Source: an uncultured bacterium (lineage in GTDB: Bacteria; Schekmanbacteria; GWA2-38-11; J061). From it: a stretch of 64,000 bases of DNA. The position numbers and the translations under genes were made by a program. This document shows, in pieces, positions 32,472 through 56,728 of this stretch (its first letter is position 1; each line of letters opens with the position of its first letter). The stretch is taken from positions 31,380-95,379 of the forward strand of contig CAZJVM010000003.1 in NCBI GenBank assembly GCA_964549305.1, read 5' to 3'. Under the pieces are notes generated by a model. That model was not told the DNA's origin, searched no databases, and was given only the letters and a program-made list of their open reading frames with translations.

Positions 32472-33233
32472 TTAAAACATCACAATCGGCGGAAGTGTCT
32501 GAAGAATCATCGCTTCAGGGGGAATGCCGATTTTAATTCCGGCAACGAATCCCTTATCCTCCACGAGGTTGAATTCAACCCATTGTCCGCGCGCAACAAG
32601 CATTGCCTCGCGGGCCTTTTTGTTAAGTTTTTTTCCTTTGGTACTCTCGATTATCTTTTTGTACGTCCTGATAAAAGTATTTCCTGTTTCCATTAAAAAA
32701 GGCATATCCTTCTCCGCCAAGTCAAAGGCAATTCCGAGTCCTCCTCCCCTCTGCTTGTTGCGGTAGATGGAATGGAAGAGATTTTTCAGATTTTCATTGA
32801 GGGCGCCGTAATTTTTTCCGTATTTTTTGCATAGCGCTTTCATCGATTTGATAAAAATTTCCCTTTCATCTTCTGATTCGAGAAATGGCGAAAGGTCGGT
32901 ATGCCCCATTAAGCGGCATTGTTTTTTTCTTTTCAACATTCTCAGACTAAGGGTGCCTACGGGCACTTCAGGATTAAAGGTGTGCGAGCATATTTCAAAT
33001 ACCCTAACGGAAGTTTTTTCATTATAACGGGGAATTACCATTGAAAAGCGCGTATCACTGATTGCCATCTTCTCGAGGACTTTTCCTCTTAATGTGTTTA
33101 CCTCCATAAAACCGTCTGCGATATCCCAACTTTTTGAATCGAATTTGGCTCTATCGTCCGCTTTTTTAAATGTGCTGATTGCCTTTTTCTTCGCCTTCTC
33201 CATAAACTTGTCAAAATCGGATATTGCAGTCAT
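32472..33233 (-). CDS. Oxygen-dependent coproporphyrinogen III oxidase (HemF family)-like.
   Basis: IYRNKQRGGGLGIAFDL and ARGQWVEFNLVEDKGFVAGIKIG...LPP align with HemF YLKHRNEQRGIGGLFFDDL and [24 protein letters not shown]...MPPL. It is about 45 aa shorter than E. coli HemF. Confidence 0.55.
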   Translation of the reverse strand: MTAISDFDKFMEKAKKKAISTFKKADDRAKFDSKSWDIADGFMEVNTLRGKVLEKMAISDTRFSMVIPRYNEKTSVRVFEICSHTFNPEVPVGTLSLRMLKRKKQCRLMGHTDLSPFLESEDEREIFIKSMKALCKKYGKNYGALNENLKNLFHSIYRNKQRGGGLGIAFDLAEKDMPFLMETGNTFIRTYKKIIESTKGKKLNKKAREAMLVARGQWVEFNLVEDKGFVAGIKIGIPPEAMILQTLPPIVMF

Positions 33234-39975: not shown

Positions 39976-41913
39976 TTATTTCTTTTCCTTAAAGCTGTAT
40001 GATATGAGGCGTGCCGAGTTTGCCACTACCACGATTGACCCGATATTGTGGACAATCGCGCCTCCGATTGGTCCGAGAAGCCCTGAAGAGGCGAAATAAA
40101 GTGCAAAAGCGTTTATAATTATTGATATGGAAAGACTCTGCTTGATTATCGTTATGGTCTTCTTGCCGATTGCTATTCCTTCGGGTACCTTTGAAATATC
40201 GTCGGAGACAAGGGCAATGTCCGCAGATTCTATTGCTATGTCGGTGCCTCCCGCGCCCATTGCTATTCCCACATCGGCAAGGGCAAGGGCAGGAGCGTCG
40301 TTTATGCCGTCGCCAATCATTGCCACTATTTCCCCTGAATCCTTGATTTTAGATATATGTGCCACTTTGTCCTCTGGAAGCAATTCCGCCTCCACTGAGT
40401 CAAAGCCTATTCCGTGGGCAACCTTTTGTGCCGATTCCCTGCGGTCTCCCGTGAGCATAACAATATTTTTTGCGCCGAGCTTTTTAAGGTCTTCTATGGT
40501 TTCCGAAACTTCCTCCCTTATAGTGTCGGAAATGCTTATCATCCCCGCGAATTCCCCGTTTAAAGCCACGCTTATTACCGTATTTCCTTCTTTTGATTTA
40601 TCCCCGATATAGGAAAGCGATTCACTGCTCATATCAATATTTTCTTCCCTGAACATAAGCGGATTTCCGATTACGATTTTATCTCCTCCGCTTATGACTT
40701 TTACGCCCTTGCCTACGAGGGTTTCGCTCTCATCGGGTGCCATAATAATCATTCCCTTCTCATCCGCCTTTGCAAGCACCGCCTTTGCAAGTGAATGAGT
40801 GGAATGCTTTTCCGCCATCGCTGCAAGCTCGAGCACAGCGTCTTCGCTGAATCTTCCCACGGATTTCACTTCGCTCACCATCGCTTCGCCGAGAGTGACA
40901 GTTCCCGTTTTATCAAAAACAAAAGATGTGAGTTTTCCCATAGATTCAAGAATTGCGCCGCCTTTAATGAGTATCCCCTTTCTTGCGGCATTTCCGATTC
41001 CCGCAACTACTGCCGTGGGAGTGGCAATTACAAGGGCGCAGGGACAGGCAACGACAAGTATGGAAACAGCCCTTATGATTTCTCCCGTTACGAGATAAAC
41101 AGCGGCGCTGAAAAGAAGTATGGCAGGAGTAAACCATCCCGAGAAACGGTCCGCAATTCTCTCGATAGGCGGTTTTTCCGCCTGCGCTTCCTTTACCATA
41201 TCGATTATCTTCGCGAGCGTTGTCTGTCCTCCTACTCTTGTCGCTCTTATTATGAGAACTCCGTTTTTGTTGATGGTGCCGCTGAAAACTTCACCACCTT
41301 CCTCTTTGTTTACCGGAAGGGGTTCTCCCGTGATTGCCGATTCGTCCACTTCTGCAAACCCTCTCTCAACAATGCCGTCAACGGGTATTTTTCCACCCGC
41401 TTTTGCAATGATGAGTTCTCCTCTTCTTACATCTTCCACCGGAACAGTCATTTCCCTTCCGGTCCTGATTACCGTTGCGAAATCGGGAGTGATTTCGATG
41501 AGTTTTCTTATGGCATCTCCGGTTTTTGCAATCGTAAGATCTTCGAGAAGTTCGCCTACATTCATCATTAGTACAACTATTGCGCCGGCCATATATTCTC
41601 CCACCCATATTGAAGCGAAGAGGGCGAGGGTGACCAAAAGTTCGGCATTAAGCCGTTTATCTTCGAAGATTGCCCTGATTGAATTTTTTATGATTGGAAA
41701 TCCGCTCAACACGCAGGCGGCAAGAGAAAGCTTTATTCCGGGCGCGGTTTTGTCTCCGCCTAAGAAAAAGGATAAAGCGATAAGAACAATTGAAAGGACG
41801 GGGGAGAAGAAGGGCTCAATCCGTTCGGTTTCCATAAGCCATGAATTTTCACCGCACTTCTCCCGCTCTTTTATGTTGCTTTCAATGACTGCTTCTCTGC
41901 TAATGTCGTGCAT
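39976..41913 (-). CDS. P1B-type heavy-metal translocating ATPase with no fused N-terminal metal-binding domain.
   Basis: TM6 CPCALVIATP, DKTGTVT phosphorylation site, GDGINDAP hinge, TGEP actuator motif. Confidence 0.85.
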   Translation of the reverse strand: MHDISREAVIESNIKEREKCGENSWLMETERIEPFFSPVLSIVLIALSFFLGGDKTAPGIKLSLAACVLSGFPIIKNSIRAIFEDKRLNAELLVTLALFASIWVGEYMAGAIVVLMMNVGELLEDLTIAKTGDAIRKLIEITPDFATVIRTGREMTVPVEDVRRGELIIAKAGGKIPVDGIVERGFAEVDESAITGEPLPVNKEEGGEVFSGTINKNGVLIIRATRVGGQTTLAKIIDMVKEAQAEKPPIERIADRFSGWFTPAILLFSAAVYLVTGEIIRAVSILVVACPCALVIATPTAVVAGIGNAARKGILIKGGAILESMGKLTSFVFDKTGTVTLGEAMVSEVKSVGRFSEDAVLELAAMAEKHSTHSLAKAVLAKADEKGMIIMAPDESETLVGKGVKVISGGDKIVIGNPLMFREENIDMSSESLSYIGDKSKEGNTVISVALNGEFAGMISISDTIREEVSETIEDLKKLGAKNIVMLTGDRRESAQKVAHGIGFDSVEAELLPEDKVAHISKIKDSGEIVAMIGDGINDAPALALADVGIAMGAGGTDIAIESADIALVSDDISKVPEGIAIGKKTITIIKQSLSISIIINAFALYFASSGLLGPIGGAIVHNIGSIVVVANSARLISYSFKEKK

Positions 41914-41922
41914 TCTAATTCC

Positions 41923-42594
41923 CTATTTCCACGAGAAATCAAGTTTAAGAAAGCTTCCAAGGAAGATGAATATGGTCATTATTGCCGCAGTCAATGCTTC
42001 GCCTGCAAATATCAACCCAAAGAGAAAGATTGCTGCCAAAAGTTCGGGCAAAATCTTTTTTTTCAGGATTCCTTCAAAAATCGCGTTTTTAAGCAGAGGG
42101 AAAAGCCCCATCACCGTAATTACGATTAAAAATCCTTCATCAAGATTATCATTCATCGGTACTGTCTGATTTATAAGCAAAAGGACGCTCATAAAGATAA
42201 GCGCAAACCAATCCTGCAGAGGGTTGTTGAATATTCTGTGGACAAGAGTGTTTTCATCGGAACTGTGCTCGTGATGGTGTGCGTGGTGAACTTTGTGGGA
42301 GTGTTCGTGCACGTGATGATATGCCCTTGATTCAAAACGGCTCTCTTTGTGGCTATGGTCAGAATGAAAATGCTCGTCTAAGGTGTCGTGGTTGTGGTCG
42401 TGTCCGGTGAATGATTCTTCATCATTGTGGTTATGTTCGTCATGGCGGTCGTGTTCATCGTTATGTTCGTGGTGGTTGTGCCCTTCGTGTCCGTGACTGT
42501 GCTCTTCACCCGAACCGTGAGAATGGGAAGATTTCTTAACCTTTTGTCCCGATGAGGTTTTCTTGAAGATATCGTCTCTGTTTATATCGTGCAT
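41923..42594 (-). CDS. His-rich metal-binding membrane protein, homologous to the N-terminal TM helices of the adjacent P1B ATPase.
   Basis: Residues 20-120 are very rich in H/E/D (HSHGSGEEHSHGHEGHNHHEHNDEHDRHDEHNH...). The C-terminal roughly 90 aa (FPLLKNAIFEGILKKKILPELLAAIFLFGLIFAGEALTAAIMTIFIFLG) align with the ATPase N-terminus (FPIIKNSIRAIFEDKRLNAELLVTLALFASIWVGEYMAGAIVVLMM). The 3' end overlaps the ATPase start by 11 nt. Confidence 0.6.
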   Translation of the reverse strand: MHDINRDDIFKKTSSGQKVKKSSHSHGSGEEHSHGHEGHNHHEHNDEHDRHDEHNHNDEESFTGHDHNHDTLDEHFHSDHSHKESRFESRAYHHVHEHSHKVHHAHHHEHSSDENTLVHRIFNNPLQDWFALIFMSVLLLINQTVPMNDNLDEGFLIVITVMGLFPLLKNAIFEGILKKKILPELLAAIFLFGLIFAGEALTAAIMTIFIFLGSFLKLDFSWK

Positions 42595-42630: not shown

Positions 42631-43782
42631 TCAGGCAGTTGCACTGCCGGGTTTTTGTGTTTTCTTTTTTGCTTTCTTTGCAGGTTGTTTAGCTTTTTCC
42701 TCCATCTGTTTCGCATAATCGAGAACCTGCTGAAACTTTCCTTTTGAAAGTTCTGCATCCTCAAAGGGAGTTCTTCTCATTCTGAATCCGAGAGTAAGCT
42801 CGCTTGCAAGGCGTACATCTTCCTCTGTGACTTCCTTTCTTCCGTCGTAGGCGGCTTTTGTCTTGGCGCCTCTCGTTATGATAATATCAGGCCTGTGCCC
42901 GTCAACGTCAAGCTCAATGCACATACGGGCGATGATACGCAGAAAATATTTTGAAATTTCCACTTTTTCAAGATTCTTTTTTGCCTGAGCTATCTTTTTG
43001 GTTATTTCTTTGTTCTGCTTATCGTATCTTGATTTGAAAAGAATCGGGTCCTCTTCGAATTCGCGGATTCGTTTTGCGATGAGCATTCTTGAATTTATGT
43101 CGGAAAGCCCTTTCACTTCAACGTGGAAAGCGAGGCGGTCATGAAGCTGGGGGCGAAGCTCGCCTTCTTCGGGATTCATCGTGCCGGCAAGAATGAAGTT
43201 TGCCGGATGGGAAAGTGAAACTCCCTCGCGCTCAACGATATTTACTCCCATTGCCGCTGAATCGAGAAGCACATCCATTATGTGGTCGTCAAGAAGGTTG
43301 ATGTTGTCAATATAAAGAATACCGCGGTTCGCTTCCGCGAGAATTCCCGTCTCAAGGGCTTTGATTCCTTCCTTTATTGCGCGCTCGATGTTAAGGGTGC
43401 CAACGACTCTGTCTTCTGTTGCGCCTACGGGGAGTTCCGCTATGTGCATTTTTTGTTTGACGCCATTGAGCTTTCCGCCCTTATCGACAGTTTCCCTGCA
43501 TATGGAGCACATCTTGGCGGTTTCATTGGGATTGCAGTGAAAACGGCAGTCTTTGACTGCGGCAATTTCCGGCAGTACATCTGAAAGACCTCTTACGGCA
43601 ACGGTTTTTCCCGTGCCTCTTTCACCTCTTATTAGTACTCCTCCTATCTGAGGATTTATGGCATTTAGCAGAAGCGCCATCTTCATCTTTTCCTGTCCCA
43701 CTATTGCCGAGAAGGGGAAATTGGTTCTTGCCGAGGAAAAAGCGCCGGTAGTTGATTCCTTCTTTTTCTTTTTATCCTTCAT
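42631..43782 (-). CDS. Class I chelatase AAA+ subunit (ChlI/BchI-like), copy 2.
   Basis: [13 protein letters not shown], Walker [56 protein letters not shown]. Confidence 0.8.
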
Positions 43783-43801
43783 TTATAATCTCCGTAAAAA
43801 T

Positions 43802-45847
43802 TTATCTTACAGTTTGAGTTCCCTGAATTTCAACCTGCTCAAAAGCCATTTTCTTTTCAAGAGTTATGAGTGAGCCGAGACTCTGATAATTTAACTGGTC
43901 AATTCGGTAGTATTTTGCCGACAAGGAGTCCGCTATGTCCTTTGCAAAACCGTAGGAGAAGTTGATGAAGCTCATCTTCTTCGTTACTTCCGTATCGATT
44001 ACCACTGAAAATACGCCTTCGGAATATACCATTTCGGCCAGTTTTTTTATCTCTTCCATGGGGTCCGATTCAGGTACTATGGGAACATTTGCTCTGCCGT
44101 CTGTAAGAAGCACGAGAAGGGGAATTATGGTAGGGTCTTTCTTCATTTCGTTTTTAATGAGATTCATTGCCTTCATAAGTCCGAGCCCAAGAGGAGTCTT
44201 TCCGCCTGTCGGCAGAGTGGTAAGCATTTTTTTTGCAAGCTCCACTCCGTTTGTGGGAGGCAGGATAACCTGCGCGTCGTTGCCCCTGAAGGCAACCATC
44301 GCAATCCTGTCCCTGCTCTGGTAGGCATCCATCAGAAGGGAAAAGACAGTTCCCTTGGCACATTCCATTCTGTCCATCGCGCCCATTGTGCCGCTTGCAT
44401 CCACAAGAAGCACAATCAGCGAAGACACCTTGCTCTGCCTTACTTTTTTGCGGATGTCCTCTTTGCGAATGAGAAGAGCGTGAGCGGATTCGTTCTTTTC
44501 CCTTCTTCTTTTTTGATGAGGCGCTGCCGAGCGCACCGTTGCGTCAAAAGCGATGTCATTGATGTCGTCTCTCGGGATGGAATGTTTGATATATCTTCCC
44601 TTGCGCCCCGATGTTATTGATTTTATCCTTTTCCCCGAACCGGAACGTGTTTTTCGGTCGGCTTTTTTTCTCGTCATCTGCTTCGGGATTTCAACGGCAG
44701 TGCCTATTCGGTGAATCTGTCCTTCGATGGCGTCCTCCTGCTCATCGGATGCTTCCATCTCGGTGTCCGAATCTGAGGGAGGCATAATATCCTCCATCTC
44801 CTGTGAAAGTTCATCTATAAGCTGGTCCATCATTTCATCGTTTGCAGTGTCTTCTCCGTAAGGCAGCGCTCGTATTCTGAAGGGAAGTATAAGCTCTCCC
44901 GCTTTTTTAATGTGGTTGTTGTTAAGCTCTGCTTCTTCGTCAAAGGCAGCAAGCGTCGCGGCGGTTTTTAAAATCATAGTTTCGGGTCTGTGCCCTTCCA
45001 CATCGAGTTCCTTGCACATCTTACACACGAGAAGCATCGTTCGGTCTGAGGTATCTATGTTTTTAAGCGCTTTCTGGGCACGTAAAATATGCTTTCTGAG
45101 AGCTGAACTCTTTCTTTCGTATTTTTTCCTGAATGCTTCGGGTCTGTTTTCGAAGTTGTTTCTGAGGTTCGTAATGTCAACCCTTTCCTCAACGCTTTCA
45201 AGGGCTTTCACTTCCACGTGAAGCGCTATTCTGTCAAGAAGCTGAGGACGAAGCTCGCCTTCTTCAGGATTCATTGTGCCGATGAGAATGAAGCGCGAAG
45301 GATGGGAGAAGGAGATACCCTCCCTTTCTACGGTGTTTACGCCCGATGCCGCAGCATCGAGAAGCACATCCACAACGTGGTCATCGAGGAGGTTGATTTC
45401 GTCTACATAAAGAATTCCCTGATTTGCCTCGGCGAGCATTCCCGGTTCGATTACTTTTTTGCCGAATTTTACCGCCTGCTCGATGTCGAGGCTTCCCACG
45501 AGACGGTCTTCCGTAAGCCCCAGTGGAAGGTCGATTACCCGAATCTGCCTTTTTGCTATTTTCAGTTTTTCCCCTTCCATTACATCCTTTTTGCAGTTTG
45601 GGCAAAGGTCGGTGAAAATATGCGGGTTGCAGTTGAAGGGGCATCCTTGCACAACATCCACCGGTGGCAGGATTTCGGCAAGAGCCCTTACGAATGTTGA
45701 TTTTCCCGTACCCTTTTCCCCCCTTATGAGGACGCCGCCTATTTTTGGGTTGATGGCATTGAGCGTGAGAGCAAGCTTCATATTTTCCTGTCCTACCATT
45801 GCGGTGAAAGGATAAAGAAGTCTTTTAGCCGTTATTCTTTTTCCCAT
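43802..45847 (-). CDS. Class I chelatase D subunit (ChlD/BchD-like: AAA+ plus acidic linker plus vWA/MIDAS).
   Basis: N-terminal ChlI-like AAA+ module with an intact Walker A (GEKGTGKS). Acidic/Pro linker ([32 protein letters not shown]). C-terminal vWA with [15 protein letters not shown]. Confidence 0.8.
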
Positions 45848-45848
45848 T

Positions 45849-46922
45849 TTATTTAAGTTCCATTCCTTTTTCTTTTGAAAGCCGGTTGAGAACTTCGTCT
45901 ATGAGATTTATGTGATGGTCTTCAGGTTTGAAAGGTATGCGCTTTACCCTGAAGGTAAGTATGAACTTTGCGGCGGTTTTTATGTCTGCCATTAAGAGCT
46001 TTTTCCTTCCCCTCATTGCGGCTAGAGTGAGCGCAGTTTTAATTACCATCGTGTCCGCCCTGTGCCCTTCCACTTCGAGCTCCTGGCAGAGACGGCAGAC
46101 AAGTTTCAGTGCCTTTTCGGAGAATGTTACCGAGCTGAAATTCTTTCCCGCCTTCATTATTTTTTTTCTCAAAGCATCGCTTTGTCTGGAAGACTTTTCA
46201 TTAAAGGCAGTCGGGTCGGATTCGAATTCGTTTCGAAGCAGAGTTATGTTGACGCGGTCATCTACATTCTTAAGTCCTTCCACATCCACGTGTATGGCAA
46301 TTCTGTCAAGAAGCTGTGGTCGAAGTTCGCCTTCTTCTGGATTCATTGTGCCGACAAGAATGAAGCGCGAAGGATGGACAAAGGATATGCCTTCCCTCTC
46401 TACGACATTTATTGCTGAAGTTGCCGCGTCGAGAAGCACATCGACGACGTGGTCGTCGAGAAGGTTTATTTCATCTACATATAAAATTCCGCCGTTCACT
46501 TCGGCAAGTATTCCCGGTTCAAGTTCACGTTTGCCTTCCTTTATTGCCCTTTCAATGTCGAGACTTCCTATGAGACGGTCTTCAGTAACTCCCAGGGGAA
46601 GGTCAACGACTTTCATCTTGCGTTTTTCAAGGGGAAGCTTTTCGCCTTTTTCAATTGCAGACGCGCAGGACGGACATAGCGCGGAATCAGATCCCGGTGA
46701 GCAGTTAAAGGGGCATCCTTTGACTACTGTTACCTCAGGAAGTATTTCAGCAAGCGCCCTTACCGCAGTGGACTTTCCCGTGCCCTTTTCCCCTCTGATT
46801 AAAACTCCGCCGATGGAAGGATTTGCGGCATTAAGCGTCAGGGCAAGTTTCATATCTTCCTGTCCTACGATTGAAACAAATGGGTAAAGTGTCCTTTTGA
46901 CCTTTTCTGTTTTTTTCTCCAT
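45849..46922 (-). CDS. Class I chelatase AAA+ subunit (ChlI/BchI-like), copy 1.
   Basis: [68 protein letters not shown]. Confidence 0.8.
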
Positions 46923-46937
46923 TGAGTAACTCCGTTT

Positions 46938-49900
46938 TTATTCTTCCTGTTCTTCTATCTCAGATTCTATCTCGAGATAGATTTTCTTCAGCTTTTCTAT
47001 TTCTTCTTCTGTAGCATCCCATATTCCCCTGTTGAATGCTTCCATAAGCCGGTTAAGCTGATGCTCCACAGCCCAGACATTCTCCTTCATCATGCTTTTT
47101 CTGACATTTTCATCGAAGAGGTATTTTTCCGCAACCTGGCTCCATACCCAGTTGTCAACAGATTCCGATGTTGCCGACCACCCGATGAGATGCTCGACTC
47201 TTTGGCTGATGTTTTTCACTCCCCTGTATCCGCTCGATACCTGTCCCTCTATCCATTTGGGGTTGAAGAGTTTTGTCTTCGCTTCGTATTCCAGCGTGGA
47301 TTTAATGTTCTTCGTGCTTATGCGGTCTTTTGTGGTGTCAGCAACGAGAATGGAAGGTTTCGATTTTTTCTGCTTACCGCTTTTCCTTTTTACCGTTTCA
47401 ACGGATTTTGCCATACCGCCGAGAAACTCGTAGTAGTGGTCAAGGTCTGCCATTCCGTATTCGTCACTGCTTCTTACCTGCGCAACCACATCCACCTTGT
47501 CGAGCACTTCCCTGAATGTGTCCGTATTCGATACGGCGTGAAATGAATCTCCGTAGATGTGGGACATCTTTGCAATATGAAGGTTTGCTATATCTTCACT
47601 TTCCTCCCAACCCGATGTTTCGATTAGCTGAGTGACATCGGTGCCGTAGTTTGATGCCGAGGGACCGAATATCCTTGCGCGGGAGAGGGCCTCTGCCTGA
47701 TTTTTCGGTACTCCTTTATCAGTGAGCACCTTGCGTATTTCGTCTGAATGTTTTTTAACGAAATTTTTATCGTGCGGTTCATCCAAATCAGCGACAATGT
47801 TAAAGGCACGGTCTATGATTTTCAGCAGCACGGGGAAGGTGTCCCTGAATATGCCGCATATTTCCACTGCCACATCGAGGCGGGGCCTTCCTAATTTTTC
47901 AGGAGGTATCGCTTTTACGCCGACGAATTCGCCCGTGCCCGCCCATTTCGGCTCGACTCCGAGATAGTGAAAAATCTCTGCGACGGTTTCGCCCTGAGTT
48001 TTCATCGTTTCGAAACCCCAGAGAATGACTCCCACCGTTTCGGGAAATTTTCCTTCGTTTTCTTCCTTGTATCCTTCTATTACCTGTTTTCCGATGAGAA
48101 GTCCCCTTTCAACTGCCGTGCGTGTGGGTATGAGGTCGGGATTGAACTGATAAATATTTCTTCCCGTGGGAATAACGGCAGGGCTTCGCACAGGGTCGCC
48201 TCCCACTCCCGGCTTTATGTATTTGCCGGAAAAAGTTGCGAGCAGACTGTCTATTTCAAAATTGTTCGAAAGGTTTGATGCAATCTCACCGGCAAAGCCC
48301 AGAGTCTTTTCGAACTCGTTTATCTGTTTGGAGTTGGGTTTATTACTGATAAACTTTTTAATTGTTTTTTTAACAGACGGTGATTTTGCTTTGAGATAGT
48401 CAAGAAGAATCTTTTTGGATTTTTCTTCCACTTCTTCAAGCACTATGCCCATAGGCCTTCCGTCGGGGCCGATTTTCGATGGTTTGTCGCGGGCATCTTC
48501 CCAGTCGATTCCTTCCGCCTCAGACACGAGTCTGTGAAGCGAAAGAGTTTCTCCTTTGTCAAATCTAACTATGCCCATTACATAATCGGCCAATTCTTCG
48601 TCCTTGAAGGAGTTGCCGAGGACGTGTACTCCCTTTGTCATAAGCGTGCCCTTCATTTCGGTAAGGGAGTCGTAAAGCTCGTTTATGTCAATATCCGCGG
48701 CTTCAATGTCGGCAAGGTTTTCTTCTTTTGCCATTTCAAGGATTTTTTCCTTTATCGCCTTTGCCTGAGCGGGGCTTTGTTCCTTCTGCTGGAAATAATT
48801 ATGTATTTCCGTTTCCATTTCAAAAAGCCGCCCGTAGAGATTTGAAACAATCATCGGAGGCGTCATATAATCCACAGTCGTCGCGTGGCTTCTTCTGCGC
48901 GCAATGGAAGATTCCGAGGGATTTGAGCAGGTGTAGTAATAGGCGTGAGGGATATCGCCTATAAGAAGGTCGGGATAGCAGTTTTCAGAAAGGGCAACCT
49001 GTTTTCCCGGTAAAAATTCCAATGTGCCGTGGGTGCCGAAATGAACGAGAAGGTCAGCCTGAAATTCCTTCTGAAGCCAGAGATAGTATGCAAGATACTG
49101 ATGATGAGGCGCTATTCCCGTATCGTGATAAGTCTTCGAAGGGTCTTCGAAATATCCCCTGGGCGGCTGAAATCCTAAAAATATCTTCCCAAAAGTAATT
49201 CCCGGTATGAGGACATCTTCATCGTCGGCGAGAATGTTTCCCGGAGATTCACCCCATTGCTCGATGATGTCCTTCCTGTTATGTTCGGGAATTTCGTTAA
49301 GCCATTCATTATAAGCGCTTACGGGCACCTTGAAGGCATTTTCCTTGATTTTTTGCAATCCTGTCCAGTTGCTCAGGTTCACGAGATTTTTCTTTACCAT
49401 AAGGCGGATGAACTCCTGACGTGTTTTCGGGTATCCCGAAACATCGTAACCCTCTTTTTTCATCCTGTCGAAAAGTCTTATCAAACTGTCGAAGGTGTCG
49501 AGGTTTCCCGCGTTTCCTATGTTGTCTTTTCCGGGAGGATAATTGAAAAGAACAAAAGCCACTTTCTTTTCACTGTTTTTAAGGTTTCTGAGCTTAACCC
49601 ATCTTGCCGTTCTTTCCACTGCCCTGTCCACCCGGTCTTCGATTGCCTGCATTACGCGGATGGTCTTCCCGTTTTCCGAAAGGTCCTTGTGACCTGATAT
49701 AAGGACGCCTTCAATCAGTCCGTCAAGCTCGGGAAGTATTGCCGTAATCGTTGTCTCAAGAGGCGCCATTCCTTCACTCTTTTCCCTCCACTCGTCAACG
49801 GTTGTGTATCCCATATTAAGATACTTCATAATCGGGACATTCAGTCTTGCGGCAAGATCTATGAATGCTTCGTAATCGCCGCCGAGCGGTCCTCCTTCGA

Positions 49901-50840
49901 TTCTGAAAAAGAGAAAGCTTATGATTGCTTCAACTATTGATTTGCCCTTTGACATAAACTGGCGTTCCATATTTTTCATATTTTCAGAACCTGATGTGAG
50001 GATTGTAATCGCGCCGAGTCCACGTTTCTCGAGAGCTTCTATGACTGCTTCAAGGTCGCCTGTGTCCTGTGTCTGATAGCGTTGAGTGTAGAAGAGGATA
50101 CCCACATAAGGATTTTTGACTGTTTTAGTGAGTTCGGTCTTTTGAATGAGTCCGGATTTTTTGTACCAGCTGAGATATTCATCGACGGTGGCGTATATTT
50201 TCTCCGATTTCGGATGATAAAGCGCGCCCTGCTTGATTTCTTCGGGAGGTTTGTATTCGACCTTGTATCCGTAATATTCGGAGAGGATGAACATAAAAAA
50301 TTGCGTAATGTTGTCTCTGCCTCCTGCAAAGAAATATTTCCATGCCCTGATGTAATTCGCGGCATCCTTCCATTTTCCGAATCTCATAACCTTGAGAATC
50401 GCGTCTGCCATTACAAGAAGTTTGCGCACTTCCATAGTGCTCTTGCTTGAATTCATTAATCCTCTGAGGATTCCAACGGCTTTTCCGAGCATTGAGTCGC
50501 TTTTTTCCATAGACATCTTGGGAAGCTGAAATTTTCCAATCTTCGTAAGGCTCATTCCGCGGGGCATTGAAGCGAGGACAATATAATTCTTTTTTTCGCT
50601 TTTGTGTTTTTCGAGTATGTCGAGAATTTCATCGTCAAACACCATATTGACGATTACCGTATCGGCTTCCTTTATGCTTTTTTCGATTTTTGAAAGATGT
50701 TCTTTCTGAAACTTCTGGTGGCGAAGGCAGAAGAAATAATCGAGTTTTACTTCACCCTTGAATTTCTTTTCAAGTTCATTTGATGCCTCGGCAAGAGACT
50801 TACTGAAGGTATAGTCTCCAATTATGGCAGTAAAATGCAT
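46938..50840 (-). CDS. Class I chelatase large subunit (CobN/ChlH family), 1300 aa.
   Basis: CobN/ChlH-family blocks throughout, including LLVHFGTHGTLEFLPGK, PNLYGRLFE and VKLRNLKNSEKKVAFVLFNYPPG. Confidence 0.85.
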   Translation of the reverse strand: MHFTAIIGDYTFSKSLAEASNELEKKFKGEVKLDYFFCLRHQKFQKEHLSKIEKSIKEADTVIVNMVFDDEILDILEKHKSEKKNYIVLASMPRGMSLTKIGKFQLPKMSMEKSDSMLGKAVGILRGLMNSSKSTMEVRKLLVMADAILKVMRFGKWKDAANYIRAWKYFFAGGRDNITQFFMFILSEYYGYKVEYKPPEEIKQGALYHPKSEKIYATVDEYLSWYKKSGLIQKTELTKTVKNPYVGILFYTQRYQTQDTGDLEAVIEALEKRGLGAITILTSGSENMKNMERQFMSKGKSIVEAIISFLFFRIEGGPLGGDYEAFIDLAARLNVPIMKYLNMGYTTVDEWREKSEGMAPLETTITAILPELDGLIEGVLISGHKDLSENGKTIRVMQAIEDRVDRAVERTARWVKLRNLKNSEKKVAFVLFNYPPGKDNIGNAGNLDTFDSLIRLFDRMKKEGYDVSGYPKTRQEFIRLMVKKNLVNLSNWTGLQKIKENAFKVPVSAYNEWLNEIPEHNRKDIIEQWGESPGNILADDEDVLIPGITFGKIFLGFQPPRGYFEDPSKTYHDTGIAPHHQYLAYYLWLQKEFQADLLVHFGTHGTLEFLPGKQVALSENCYPDLLIGDIPHAYYYTCSNPSESSIARRRSHATTVDYMTPPMIVSNLYGRLFEMETEIHNYFQQKEQSPAQAKAIKEKILEMAKEENLADIEAADIDINELYDSLTEMKGTLMTKGVHVLGNSFKDEELADYVMGIVRFDKGETLSLHRLVSEAEGIDWEDARDKPSKIGPDGRPMGIVLEEVEEKSKKILLDYLKAKSPSVKKTIKKFISNKPNSKQINEFEKTLGFAGEIASNLSNNFEIDSLLATFSGKYIKPGVGGDPVRSPAVIPTGRNIYQFNPDLIPTRTAVERGLLIGKQVIEGYKEENEGKFPETVGVILWGFETMKTQGETVAEIFHYLGVEPKWAGTGEFVGVKAIPPEKLGRPRLDVAVEICGIFRDTFPVLLKIIDRAFNIVADLDEPHDKNFVKKHSDEIRKVLTDKGVPKNQAEALSRARIFGPSASNYGTDVTQLIETSGWEESEDIANLHIAKMSHIYGDSFHAVSNTDTFREVLDKVDVVAQVRSSDEYGMADLDHYYEFLGGMAKSVETVKRKSGKQKKSKPSILVADTTKDRISTKNIKSTLEYEAKTKLFNPKWIEGQVSSGYRGVKNISQRVEHLIGWSATSESVDNWVWSQVAEKYLFDENVRKSMMKENVWAVEHQLNRLMEAFNRGIWDATEEEIEKLKKIYLEIESEIEEQEE

Positions 50841-50858: not shown

Positions 50859-51308
50859 TTAAATGCTCAGTTTTTCAAGAATTTTCCTGACTTTATCAAG
50901 TGAGTTTCCAAGCTCGCTTACTTCTTCATCTGTGAGGCGGCTAAAAATATTGAGAAGTTCTTCACGGCGCTTCATCATAAATTCCATCCTCATTTCCACG
51001 CCTTTCTCTGTAAGATTCACCTTTACCACTCTGCGGTCATTTTTATCTCTTTCTCTTTCTACGATGCCTTCCTTAACCAGTTTGTCGATTGCTTCTGTCA
51101 TGCTTGGAAGGGTTACGCCCGCGTTTTTAGCCAATTCACCCATTGTGAAGGGGCGGGATTCGGTAAAGGCGGAAAGGGCTTTGATTTTGGAGAGACTTAG
51201 GTCATAGCTTAATTTTACGCCGTTTAGAGAAACAACCTTTTTTGTAAACTCAATAAAGAAATCTTTTACCTTGAGGATATTTTCTTCAAGATTTTTCGCT
51301 CTCTGCAT
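50859..51308 (-). CDS. MarR-family transcriptional regulator.
   Basis: Winged HTH: MGELAKNAGVTLPSMTEAIDKLVKEGIVERERDKNDRRVVKVNLTEKG. It is the first gene of the chelatase operon. Confidence 0.8.
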   Translation of the reverse strand: MQRAKNLEENILKVKDFFIEFTKKVVSLNGVKLSYDLSLSKIKALSAFTESRPFTMGELAKNAGVTLPSMTEAIDKLVKEGIVERERDKNDRRVVKVNLTEKGVEMRMEFMMKRREELLNIFSRLTDEEVSELGNSLDKVRKILEKLSI

Positions 51309-51325: not shown

Positions 51326-51356
51326 ATTTAGATAAATAATATTTCAGTATCTAAAT
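51326..51356. promoter_or_regulatory. Perfect 9-bp inverted repeat ATTTAGATA-N13-TATCTAAAT in the divergent MarR/GGDEF promoter region; candidate MarR operator.
   Basis: Read directly from the sequence. Left arm at 51326-51334 and right arm at 51348-51356, 18-48 nt upstream of the marR start. Confidence 0.4.
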
Positions 51357-51463
51357 ATTAATTAAATAAATATTATTGTCAAGAGAAAGAAATAAGATAT
51401 TTAAACTTTTTTCCCCTTTTGCATTAGAAATTAATATTGAAGCGATAAAAAACGATACTAAGA

Positions 51464-56026: not shown

Positions 56027-56728
56027 TCATTTATTTTTCAGAAGCAGGGTTATTTCTCCCTTCAGGTTGTCTAAAGCGCCTGAGAGGAGTAAAGACTGTA
56101 CGGTGTCCGTAACTACTTCCTCGTGAATTTTTGTCAACTCACGACAAATACAAATTTCTCTATTACCTGCAATGTTGGAAATTTCTTCAATAAGCCGTTT
56201 CACTCTTTTCGGTGATTCAAATATAATTACGGTTTCTTTGCGGGAGGCCAAATCCATAAGCACCTTTTCTCTTTTTCCTTTTTTTCGTGGCAGAAATCCT
56301 TCAAAGTAAAACCTCGACGTATCAAATCCCGAAACGGAAAGAGCGGTTATGGGCGCCGATATGCCTCCTATTGGGGAAACCTTGATTTCTTCCTTTATGG
56401 CATCGATTATGAGGGATGTGCCCGGGTCTGAAATTCCGGGCATTCCCGCCTCGGAAACAAGAGCTACATTCTTTCCCGATTTTAATTCTTCGATAATCTT
56501 TTTACCCTTATATCTGCTATTGGCGCTGTAATAACTGGTGAGGCGTTTTTTTATTTTGTAGCGGTTTAACAGCTTTAGCGTTTTTCGTGTATCCTCCGCC
56601 GCGATAATGTCGCAGGTCCTGAGGGTTTTAATCGCTCTTATGGTAATGTCTTCGAGATTTCCGATGGGCGTGGAAACTATATAAAGAGTTCCTGCCGATG
56701 GATTTACGACACTGTTTCCGCCGTTCAT
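56027..56728 (-). CDS. rsmI: 16S rRNA (cytidine1402-2'-O)-methyltransferase.
   Basis: Tetrapyrrole-methylase fold: LYIVSTPIGNLEDITIRAIKTL..IAAEDTR, EAGMPGISDPG. Confidence 0.85.
   Translation of the reverse strand: MNGGNSVVNPSAGTLYIVSTPIGNLEDITIRAIKTLRTCDIIAAEDTRKTLKLLNRYKIKKRLTSYYSANSRYKGKKIIEELKSGKNVALVSEAGMPGISDPGTSLIIDAIKEEIKVSPIGGISAPITALSVSGFDTSRFYFEGFLPRKKGKREKVLMDLASRKETVIIFESPKRVKRLIEEISNIAGNREICICRELTKIHEEVVTDTVQSLLLSGALDNLKGEITLLLKNK

Follow-up and report, generated by a model that had tools for sequence, protein, structure and literature searches.

What are four cysteines doing in the motor of a tetrapyrrole chelatase? The question is raised by an operon in a 64,000 nucleotide (nt) stretch of DNA from an uncultured bacterium of the Schekmanbacteria (contig CAZJVM010000003.1, positions 31,380 to 95,379 of the forward strand; this whole stretch is called hereafter the window). 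The operon encodes a large chelatase subunit and three proteins with a ChlI-type AAA+ module, namely two small subunits, I1 and I2, and a D subunit. The pattern C-x3-C-x8-C-x2-C, called hereafter Cys4, was found in all three. The answer proposed below is that the pattern is real and widespread, and that it marks a version of a known insert with a probable metal site, apparently not described before, whose role would be plausible but ordinary, namely structural.

The original prediction, made from the letters of the window, had located four Cys in each of the three subunits, and the positions it gave are exact for the cores running from the first to the last Cys (Table 1). The three paralogues share 50–62% mutual identity, and the four Cys columns are identical across them. 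In a 66-sequence alignment C70, C74, P76, C83 and C86 (I1 numbering) are invariant. Under random placement, the clustering of four out of six Cys inside 17 residues has a probability of about 0.004 for one protein. A second Cys pair, C276/C279 in the lid of I1, was also considered as a site and rejected: the family consensus keeps C279 alone, and I2 has just one.

The four Cys had been taken for an insertion absent from canonical ChlI/BchI. This part of the prediction did not survive alignment, for Cys4 sits inside i1, an insert specific to ChlI/BchI that separates the Walker A helix from strand β2. HMMER aligned I1 with the Synechocystis and Nostoc ChlI proteins (6L8D, 8OSF) without gaps through the motif region. 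From the PE just behind the Walker A helix to the DLPLG in β2, I1 and Synechocystis ChlI both have 50 residues, of which 19 are identical, and the residues shared in i1 include P-F-N and S-P (S/D-P). The insert is 43 amino acids (aa) long in I1, D and I2. The cyanobacterial loop quoted in the original prediction, VVANDPFNSSPSDPEMMSEEV, was correctly described as free of Cys, and it aligns column for column: i1 has the same length, but Synechocystis and Nostoc have Asp, Ser, Ser and Val in place of the four Cys. Rhodobacter BchI retains the first Cys alone, in a loop that is 7 residues shorter. Because the alignment to cyanobacterial ChlI is gapless and the length of i1 is the same, Cys4 is, as aligned, a decoration of the known insert and not a new insertion.

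The position of this insert in the motor is known from cryo-electron microscopy (cryo-EM) of Nostoc ChlI, where i1, i2 (the H2 insert) and i3 (the PS1 insert) form the ring top. There i1 is ordered with ATP and disordered with ADP; it touches helices α6-α7 of the next protomer, and a contact to ChlD or ChlH has been proposed (PMC10653834).

To describe the distribution of the motif, the nearest relatives of I1 in bacteria and archaea were sampled, which gave 369 distinct segments after pooling and de-duplication. All four Cys were present in 324 of these, which represent more than 15 bacterial and archaeal phyla. In 30 segments the loop had its full length but not the canonical pattern, and i1 was missing from the remaining 15 (about 17 residues instead of about 56); nearly all of the latter were D subunits, and 13 had no Cys. 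Among the best homologues of I1 clustered at 90% identity the motif was found in 120 out of 120, including Schekmanbacteria, Dehalococcoidia, Methanocaldococcus, Methanomethylicia, Methanosarcinales, Desulfobacteraceae and Firmicutes, and among 50%-cluster representatives in 127 of the best 150 of 1501. Eighty loci from GTDB species representatives, again covering more than 15 phyla, had the motif in 61 small subunits and 37 D subunits, with three more small subunits carrying four Cys at other spacing. Most of the sampled relatives of I1, non-photosynthetic ChlI/ChlD-type subunits, have Cys4, and it is not a peculiarity of this locus. The original prediction had named, as an outcome that would speak against it, an insert that was universal among such homologues and had a documented structural zinc; this prevalence answers to the first half, whereas no documented zinc answers to the second.

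The exceptions are informative as to what the Cys may do. Of the 30 segments with a long loop, 16 retain three Cys, mostly with a His at or beside the lost ligand. The His replaces the fourth Cys in MCDYH and MCPKH (C..C...C..H), the third in LHKEC (C..C...H..C) and the first in DHPFNC (H..C...C..C), and a recurrent variant, C-x3-C-x8-C-P-x-G-P-H, includes Streptomyces bambusae. The middle spacer of the motif ranges from about 6 to 8 residues among homologues. Exchange of Cys and His at ligand positions is typical of mononuclear Zn sites. Since single ligands have been swapped to His at three different positions, in separate lineages, the site would be mononuclear; such swaps are not expected of disulfides and are uncommon for cubane clusters.

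Plant CHLI activity is redox-regulated through cysteines, and a function without metal, as regulatory thiols or disulfides of the kind proposed for thioredoxin-regulated plant CHLI, has to be weighed against these variants. That precedent, together with the close CxxxC and CxxC pairs that could form disulfides, speaks for it. However, the plant regulatory Cys are at other positions, a His at a ligand position makes no sense for a disulfide, and the four Cys are retained or lost as a set. The proteins are moreover cytoplasmic and mostly from strict anaerobes. We regard a thiol switch as very improbable.

The AlphaFold2 (AF2) model of I1 has a pLDDT (predicted local distance difference test) of 91.6 overall and of 86–92 across the Cys loop. 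Compared by Foldseek with BchI (1g8p) and ChlI (8osg), it gave template modelling (TM) scores of 0.80–0.89. In the model a strand (residues 64–67) is followed by a coil with C70 and C74, and C83 and C86 start a helix (84–91). A knuckle combined with a helix N-terminus is the layout of treble-clef zinc sites. Given the invariance of the four Cys, the replacement of single ligands by His, the near all-or-none presence of the set and this confidently predicted layout, they most likely form one functional unit that binds metal. To this extent the functional metal site of the original prediction stands, though not as something inserted into the AAA+ N-domain.

Which metal is bound is a separate matter. 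If the Cys held redox-active iron, as a rubredoxin-like Fe(Cys)4 site or as an Fe-S cluster, assembly or activity of the motor would be sensitive to oxygen or redox state. Most motif carriers in the sample are anaerobes (methanogens, Dehalococcoidia, Thermodesulfobacteriota, Firmicutes), the solved Cys-free versions come from oxygenic or facultatively aerobic phototrophs, and Cys4 and Cys3His sets are compatible with Fe or 2Fe-2S. In contrast, C-x3-C-x8-C-x2-C is no classical 4Fe-4S motif, being different from those of 4Fe-4S ferredoxins (CxxCxxCxxxC(P)) and of radical-SAM proteins (CxxxCxxC). The His found at ligand 1, 3 or 4 depending on the lineage and the variable middle spacer also argue against an iron centre, and no gene for Fe-S assembly or for a redox partner is linked to the operon. 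Furthermore, the motif persists in aerobes, namely in several Dormibacterota loci and, with three Cys and one His, in Streptomyces, so that an oxygen-labile centre is disfavoured and an oxygen-stable site fits better. An iron centre is unlikely on these grounds.

We consider it probable that i1 is braced in each AAA+ module by a single metal ion, Zn2+ being the most likely one. The ion would be held by four thiolates in a treble-clef-like arrangement, with C70 and C74 contributed by a C-P-F-x-C knuckle and C83 and C86 by the first turn of the helix. It would fix the fold of i1, and so act as a structural brace of the surface in contact with the next protomer and with partner subunits, not as a sensor. 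A metal-braced i1 would be the common state of ChlI/ChlD-type subunits, and probably the ancestral one, since Cys4 occurs in archaea and bacteria and in both the I and the D paralogues. The Mg-chelatase lines of cyanobacteria and plants and of Rhodobacter would then have kept the loop and lost the ligands by substitution, and some D subunits would have deleted i1 altogether.

Several points weigh against this proposal. The sample consists of the nearest relatives of I1, while the whole family comprises 1501 clusters at E ≤ 1e-30, and BchI from anaerobic phototrophs lies outside the compared set. The convergence of the four sulphurs is read from the layout of the model and not from coordinates. 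Isolated i1 peptides gave only sub-threshold matches in a Pfam zinc-finger search (zf_Rg, E = 0.024; Prok-RING_4, E = 0.11), and Cys4 is absent from solved structures, the PDB having Cys-free ChlI/BchI only. Finally, Fe and 2Fe-2S clusters are also accommodated by Cys4 and Cys3His ligand sets, so that the metal may be another than Zn2+. No mention of the i1 cysteines was found in full-text literature searches or in the papers on ChlI cryo-EM, the ChlI filament, CobSTN and the chlD frameshift, though older AAA+ classification papers may mention them.

A comparable case is offered by ribosomal protein S4, whose C+ and C- forms have a Cys4 loop in many lineages and non-ligand residues in others, with the fold intact (PMC3087516). 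The likeness is one of analogy only, as the proteins are unrelated and zinc in the Cys4 i1 is only predicted.

The operon itself consists of seven genes placed head to tail on the minus strand, with gaps of 1–36 nt (Table 1). A promoter-like site lies upstream of its first gene and is possibly the operon promoter. Closest database relatives are from Candidatus Schekmanbacteria (84% identity), and the entire operon, including its last two genes, recurs in a Schekmanbacteria genome that is 66% identical. Two sets of related loci were used for comparison: L001 and L002, from Schekmanbacteria, and L083 and L084, two unrelated metagenome contigs. The MarR gene occupies the equivalent position in all four.

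Table 1. Positions of the chelatase operon, its motifs and genes compared in related loci (window numbering, unless a related locus is named)
Feature	Position	Strand	Remarks
Promoter-like site, TTGACA-16-TAATAT	51355..51382	-	Upstream of MarR gene; 10/12 consensus matches, by pattern match alone
MarR-family regulator, operon gene 1	50859..51308	-	Pfam MarR, E = 6e-13
Large (H/N) chelatase subunit, ChlH/BchH-like	46938..50840	-	1300 aa; N-terminal DUF3479; Pfam CobN-Mg_chel, 1177 bits
I1, ChlI-type AAA+ small subunit	45849..46922	-	357 aa; Walker A GEKGTGKS, Walker B GILYVDE
i1 insert of I1	46611..46739	-	aa 62-104; contains the Cys4 core
Cys4 core of I1	46665-46715	-	C70/C74/C83/C86
D subunit	43802..45847	-	681 aa; complete AAA+ module, linker and VWA; Pfam Mg_chelatase, AAA_lid_2, VWA_2
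Cys4 core of D	45593-45643	-	C69/C73/C82/C85
I2, second ChlI-type small subunit	42631..43782	-	383 aa; distinct clade; Walker A GERGTGKT
Cys4 core of I2	43498-43548	-	C79/C83/C92/C95; kept in 78/78 I2-clade clusters
Walker B of I2, GILYIDN	43303..43323	-	Asn for catalytic Glu
His-rich protein	41923..42594	-	223 aa; two C-terminal transmembrane helices; likeness to first transmembrane pair of neighbouring ATPase
P1B-type heavy-metal ATPase, last operon gene	39976..41913	-	CPC motif; TIGR01525, 592 bits
I2-type genes in related loci	L001 13503-14696; L083 10001-11146; L084 10001-11176		
DsbD_2/Feo-region genes in related loci	L083 5323-6060, 14792-17946; L084 5305-6042, 16176-19293; L001/L002 17693-18478		

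By its gene content and sequence similarities, the operon encodes a tetrapyrrole chelatase of class I (ChlH/CobN-type), driven by ATP. I1, D and I2 are all matched by Pfam Mg_chelatase, AAA_5 and AAA_lid_2, and they have the Walker A/B core, the AAA_lid_2 lid and the BchI fold of ChlI/BchI-type AAA+ proteins (clade 7). The D protein shows the layout of the ChlD/BchD adaptor, an N-terminal AAA+ module, a linker and a VWA domain (VWA_2 at residues 478–584). With the ChlI/BchI proteins of Mg-chelatase (1G8P, 6L8D, 8OSF-H) the fold is the same (TM 0.8–0.9) at 43–45% identity; Walker A and B, the arginine finger, sensor 2 and the lid are shared, and the match spans the whole chain, including the H2 and PS1 hairpin regions. 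However, the equivalog cut-off for BchI-ChlI (TIGR02030, 466.95 bits) was not reached by I1 (396.3), I2 (410.2) or the AAA+ module of D (399.7).

The top-scoring NCBIfam model for all three AAA+ proteins was instead TIGR02442, the "putative cobaltochelatase" of the CobN-associated ChlD/ChlI proteins (PMC9227772). Related loci have the same N/I/D neighbourhoods, and Cys4 is the rule in them. The D subunit falls slightly under both of its models, with 726.7 against a cut-off of 779.45 for TIGR02442 and 491.9 against 499.55 for TIGR02031. The operon differs from a CobN-ChlID cobaltochelatase in its large subunit, which is ChlH/BchH-like by hidden Markov model score, and in its two small subunits, one of them with Asp-Asn (D-N) in Walker B. 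The CobS/CobT proteins have the same overall role, in that a large subunit of the CobN type is driven by an AAA+ motor together with a VWA adaptor. CobS is a clade 6 AAA+ protein, without the pre-sensor-2 insert and not domain-swapped (bioRxiv 10.64898/2026.07.21.739949), and it was not among the sequence matches of the AAA+ proteins.

The large subunit scored 1038 bits with BchH TIGR02025, above the cut-off of 829, and 733 bits with CobN TIGR02257, below that of 822. Against solved structures it gave 670 bits with ChlH (4zhj), 473 with CobN (7c6o) and 443 with HmuS (9d26). An HmuS-type heme dechelatase was rejected as the primary reading on the difference between 670 and 443 bits, and on the fact that no ChlI/ChlD partners are described for HmuS (PMC12583661). 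The position of ChlH E660 was also tried as an indicator of metal specificity; the Glu is conserved here (NPSE), but HmuS has it too, so that it does not discriminate.

Few other genes in the window bear on the tetrapyrrole. No Rfam family reached its gathering threshold anywhere in the 64 kb, so that no B12 riboswitch was detected, and no cob/cbi or bch gene (such as bchM or bchE) was among the roughly 33 large open reading frames (ORFs) scanned between 27.7 and 64 kb, those of 1–27 kb being outside the scan. The sole TP_methylase gene (56027–56728) was discarded as a tetrapyrrole enzyme: it is RsmI, the 16S rRNA 2'-O-methyltransferase (TIGR00096, 228 bits for a cut-off of 168), and has no bearing on what the operon does. 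It is syntenic with the chelatase operon in L001 and L002, where several of the genes that lie between RsmI and MarR in the window (including a PfkB-adjacent methyltransferase, an ARMT1-like phosphatase and a GGDEF protein) are absent from that place. The only other tetrapyrrole-related match among the scanned ORFs is a 253-aa distant homologue of oxygen-dependent coproporphyrinogen III oxidase, HemF (32472–33233); with 99 bits in Pfam and 122 bits for an NCBIfam equivalog cut-off of 297, it is probably no true HemF. For ChlID-type chelatases of archaea on the cobalt-early B12 route, the role is listed as an open issue (PMC8305020).

Genes for metal handling are found at the end of the operon. 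The P1B ATPase scores higher with the Cd/Zn-type model (TIGR01512, 506 bits) than with the Cu-type model (TIGR01511, 429 bits). The His-rich protein has no match in Pfam or NCBIfam. In a BLASTP comparison it showed 36% identity over 61 aa with residues 67–124 of the ATPase (E = 2e-6); its transmembrane helices are homologous to the first transmembrane pair of the ATPase, and it looks like a split-off N-terminal metal-binding module. A homologue of the His-rich protein and the ATPase occupy the same positions in L001 and L002, and the pair is absent from L083 and L084. A six-transmembrane protein of the DsbD_2 type (PF13386) is encoded between MarR and the large subunit in L083 and L084 and downstream of the ATPase in L001 and L002; no such gene turned up among the window ORFs scanned around the operon (27.7–64 kb). 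In L083 and L084, genes for FeoB, Fur and FeoA/DtxR follow the operon within a few kilobases. This gene context, comprising the His-rich protein, the Cd/Zn-type ATPase and the DsbD_2 and Feo genes of the relatives, points to a transition metal rather than Mg as the metal inserted.

The same neighbours are one argument for reading Cys4 as a site of exchangeable metal, a sensor or relay that binds the metal to be inserted or a competitor (Co2+, Ni2+, Zn2+) and would couple metal supply to assembly of the motor. Thiolate-rich tetrahedral sites are good binders of Co, Ni and Zn, and i1 lies on the side of the ring where contact with D and H has been proposed (PMC10653834). However, the motif does not differ between operons that have such neighbours and those that lack them, nor between D and I subunits or systems of very different context. 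Invariant Cys4 sites are usually tight and non-exchanging, and nothing in the sequence marks this one as labile. The metal-insertion site of a class I chelatase is in the large subunit (the ChlH E660 region), far from the motor. We regard an exchangeable site as quite unlikely. The suggestion in the original prediction of a metal or redox sensor gating the motor found no specific support, the motif being present in aerobes and anaerobes alike and in operons of differing context.

A second property of the locus concerns the ATPase sites. The motif set of D is complete, with Walker A GEKGTGKS, Walker B GILYVDE, a sensor-1/arginine-finger stretch and a sensor-2 stretch, VEGHR. In Rhodobacter-type Mg-chelatase, BchD has a degenerate module, and the original prediction had held that the ChlD module is usually degenerate and an intact Walker A in D worth remark. 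This does not apply to Synechocystis ChlD: its Walker A K49, Walker B E152, R208 and R289 were treated as conserved residues and mutated, and activity was lost in K49A (PMC3789969). Since that protein has an intact Walker A, the one in D is not unusual; the actual oddity is the Walker B D-N of I2.

A search with I2 yielded a sharply bounded clade of 78 clusters (64–100% identity) from Schekmanbacteria, Spirochaetota, Deltaproteobacteria and other metagenome-assembled genomes. All 78 have the Walker B D-N and a Walker A ending in K-T, and all have kept Cys4, whereas D-N was found in none of 273 other homologues. That the motif is kept in a clade without the Walker B Glu argues that the role of Cys4 is independent of ATP hydrolysis by the same protomer. 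L083 and L084 both encode MarR, the DsbD_2-type membrane protein, a 1300-aa ChlH-like subunit, an I2 (D-N) and a D (Asp-Glu in Walker B, Cys4); the I2 type is their sole small subunit and stands beside a D with a complete AAA+ site. If I2 behaves like Walker B Glu-to-Gln mutants, it would bind ATP but hydrolyse it poorly, and D (and I1) would be the working ATPase. The pairing of I2 with an intact D would invert the usual arrangement, in which I is active and D degenerate.

Schekmanbacteria have the additional I1 between the large subunit and D. The AAA+ module of D is 62% identical to I1, which is only about 50% identical to I2. This closer relationship to D suggests that I1 is a duplicate of the 5' part of the D gene, made in this lineage. 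One nucleotide separates the stop codon of I1 from the start codon of D (45847–45851).

The two properties may be combined in a single scheme for this family of ChlH-like chelatases from non-phototrophs, in which the braced i1 is more than structural: Cys4 on the top of a mixed I2/D (and I1) ring binds exchangeable Co, Ni, Fe or Zn and couples metal supply to assembly with the large subunit. In this scheme the small subunit with the Walker B D-N binds ATP without hydrolysis and the ATPase work falls to D, opposite to the Rhodobacter-type Mg-chelatase. We hold this scheme as a whole to be improbable.

In the survey of related loci, a ChlI-like frame was often followed directly by a separate VWA frame on the same strand (L018, L024, L027, L033, L035, L037, L039, L043, L044, L046–L048, L058, L059, L065, L066, L068 and L080–L082). 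These loci are mostly from Anaerolineae/Chloroflexota, and the upstream part has Cys4 in all but L081, which has H-C-C-C. The split frames fit the programmed chlD frameshift of Kuznetsov, Milenkin and Antonov (PMC9227772).

Structural and mechanistic work on the motor of class I chelatases has all been done on the Cys-free proteins of cyanobacteria and Rhodobacter. In these the inserts i1–i3 become ordered or disordered depending on the bound nucleotide, and the architecture of the holoenzyme is still unresolved (PMC10653834; bioRxiv 10.64898/2026.03.06.710059). Neither Cys4 nor the D-N clade alters the basic picture of what the operon is, but the clade provides a natural test of which AAA+ module works. 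If most members of the family brace i1 with a metal, the model proteins represent a derived and atypical state. Should this be true, cryo-EM may profit from thermophilic homologues of the Cys4 type, whose complexes may be more rigid, and expressing or assaying the many uncharacterised "Mg-chelatase-like" systems of archaea and anaerobes would need care over the supply of Zn and Fe and over oxidation.

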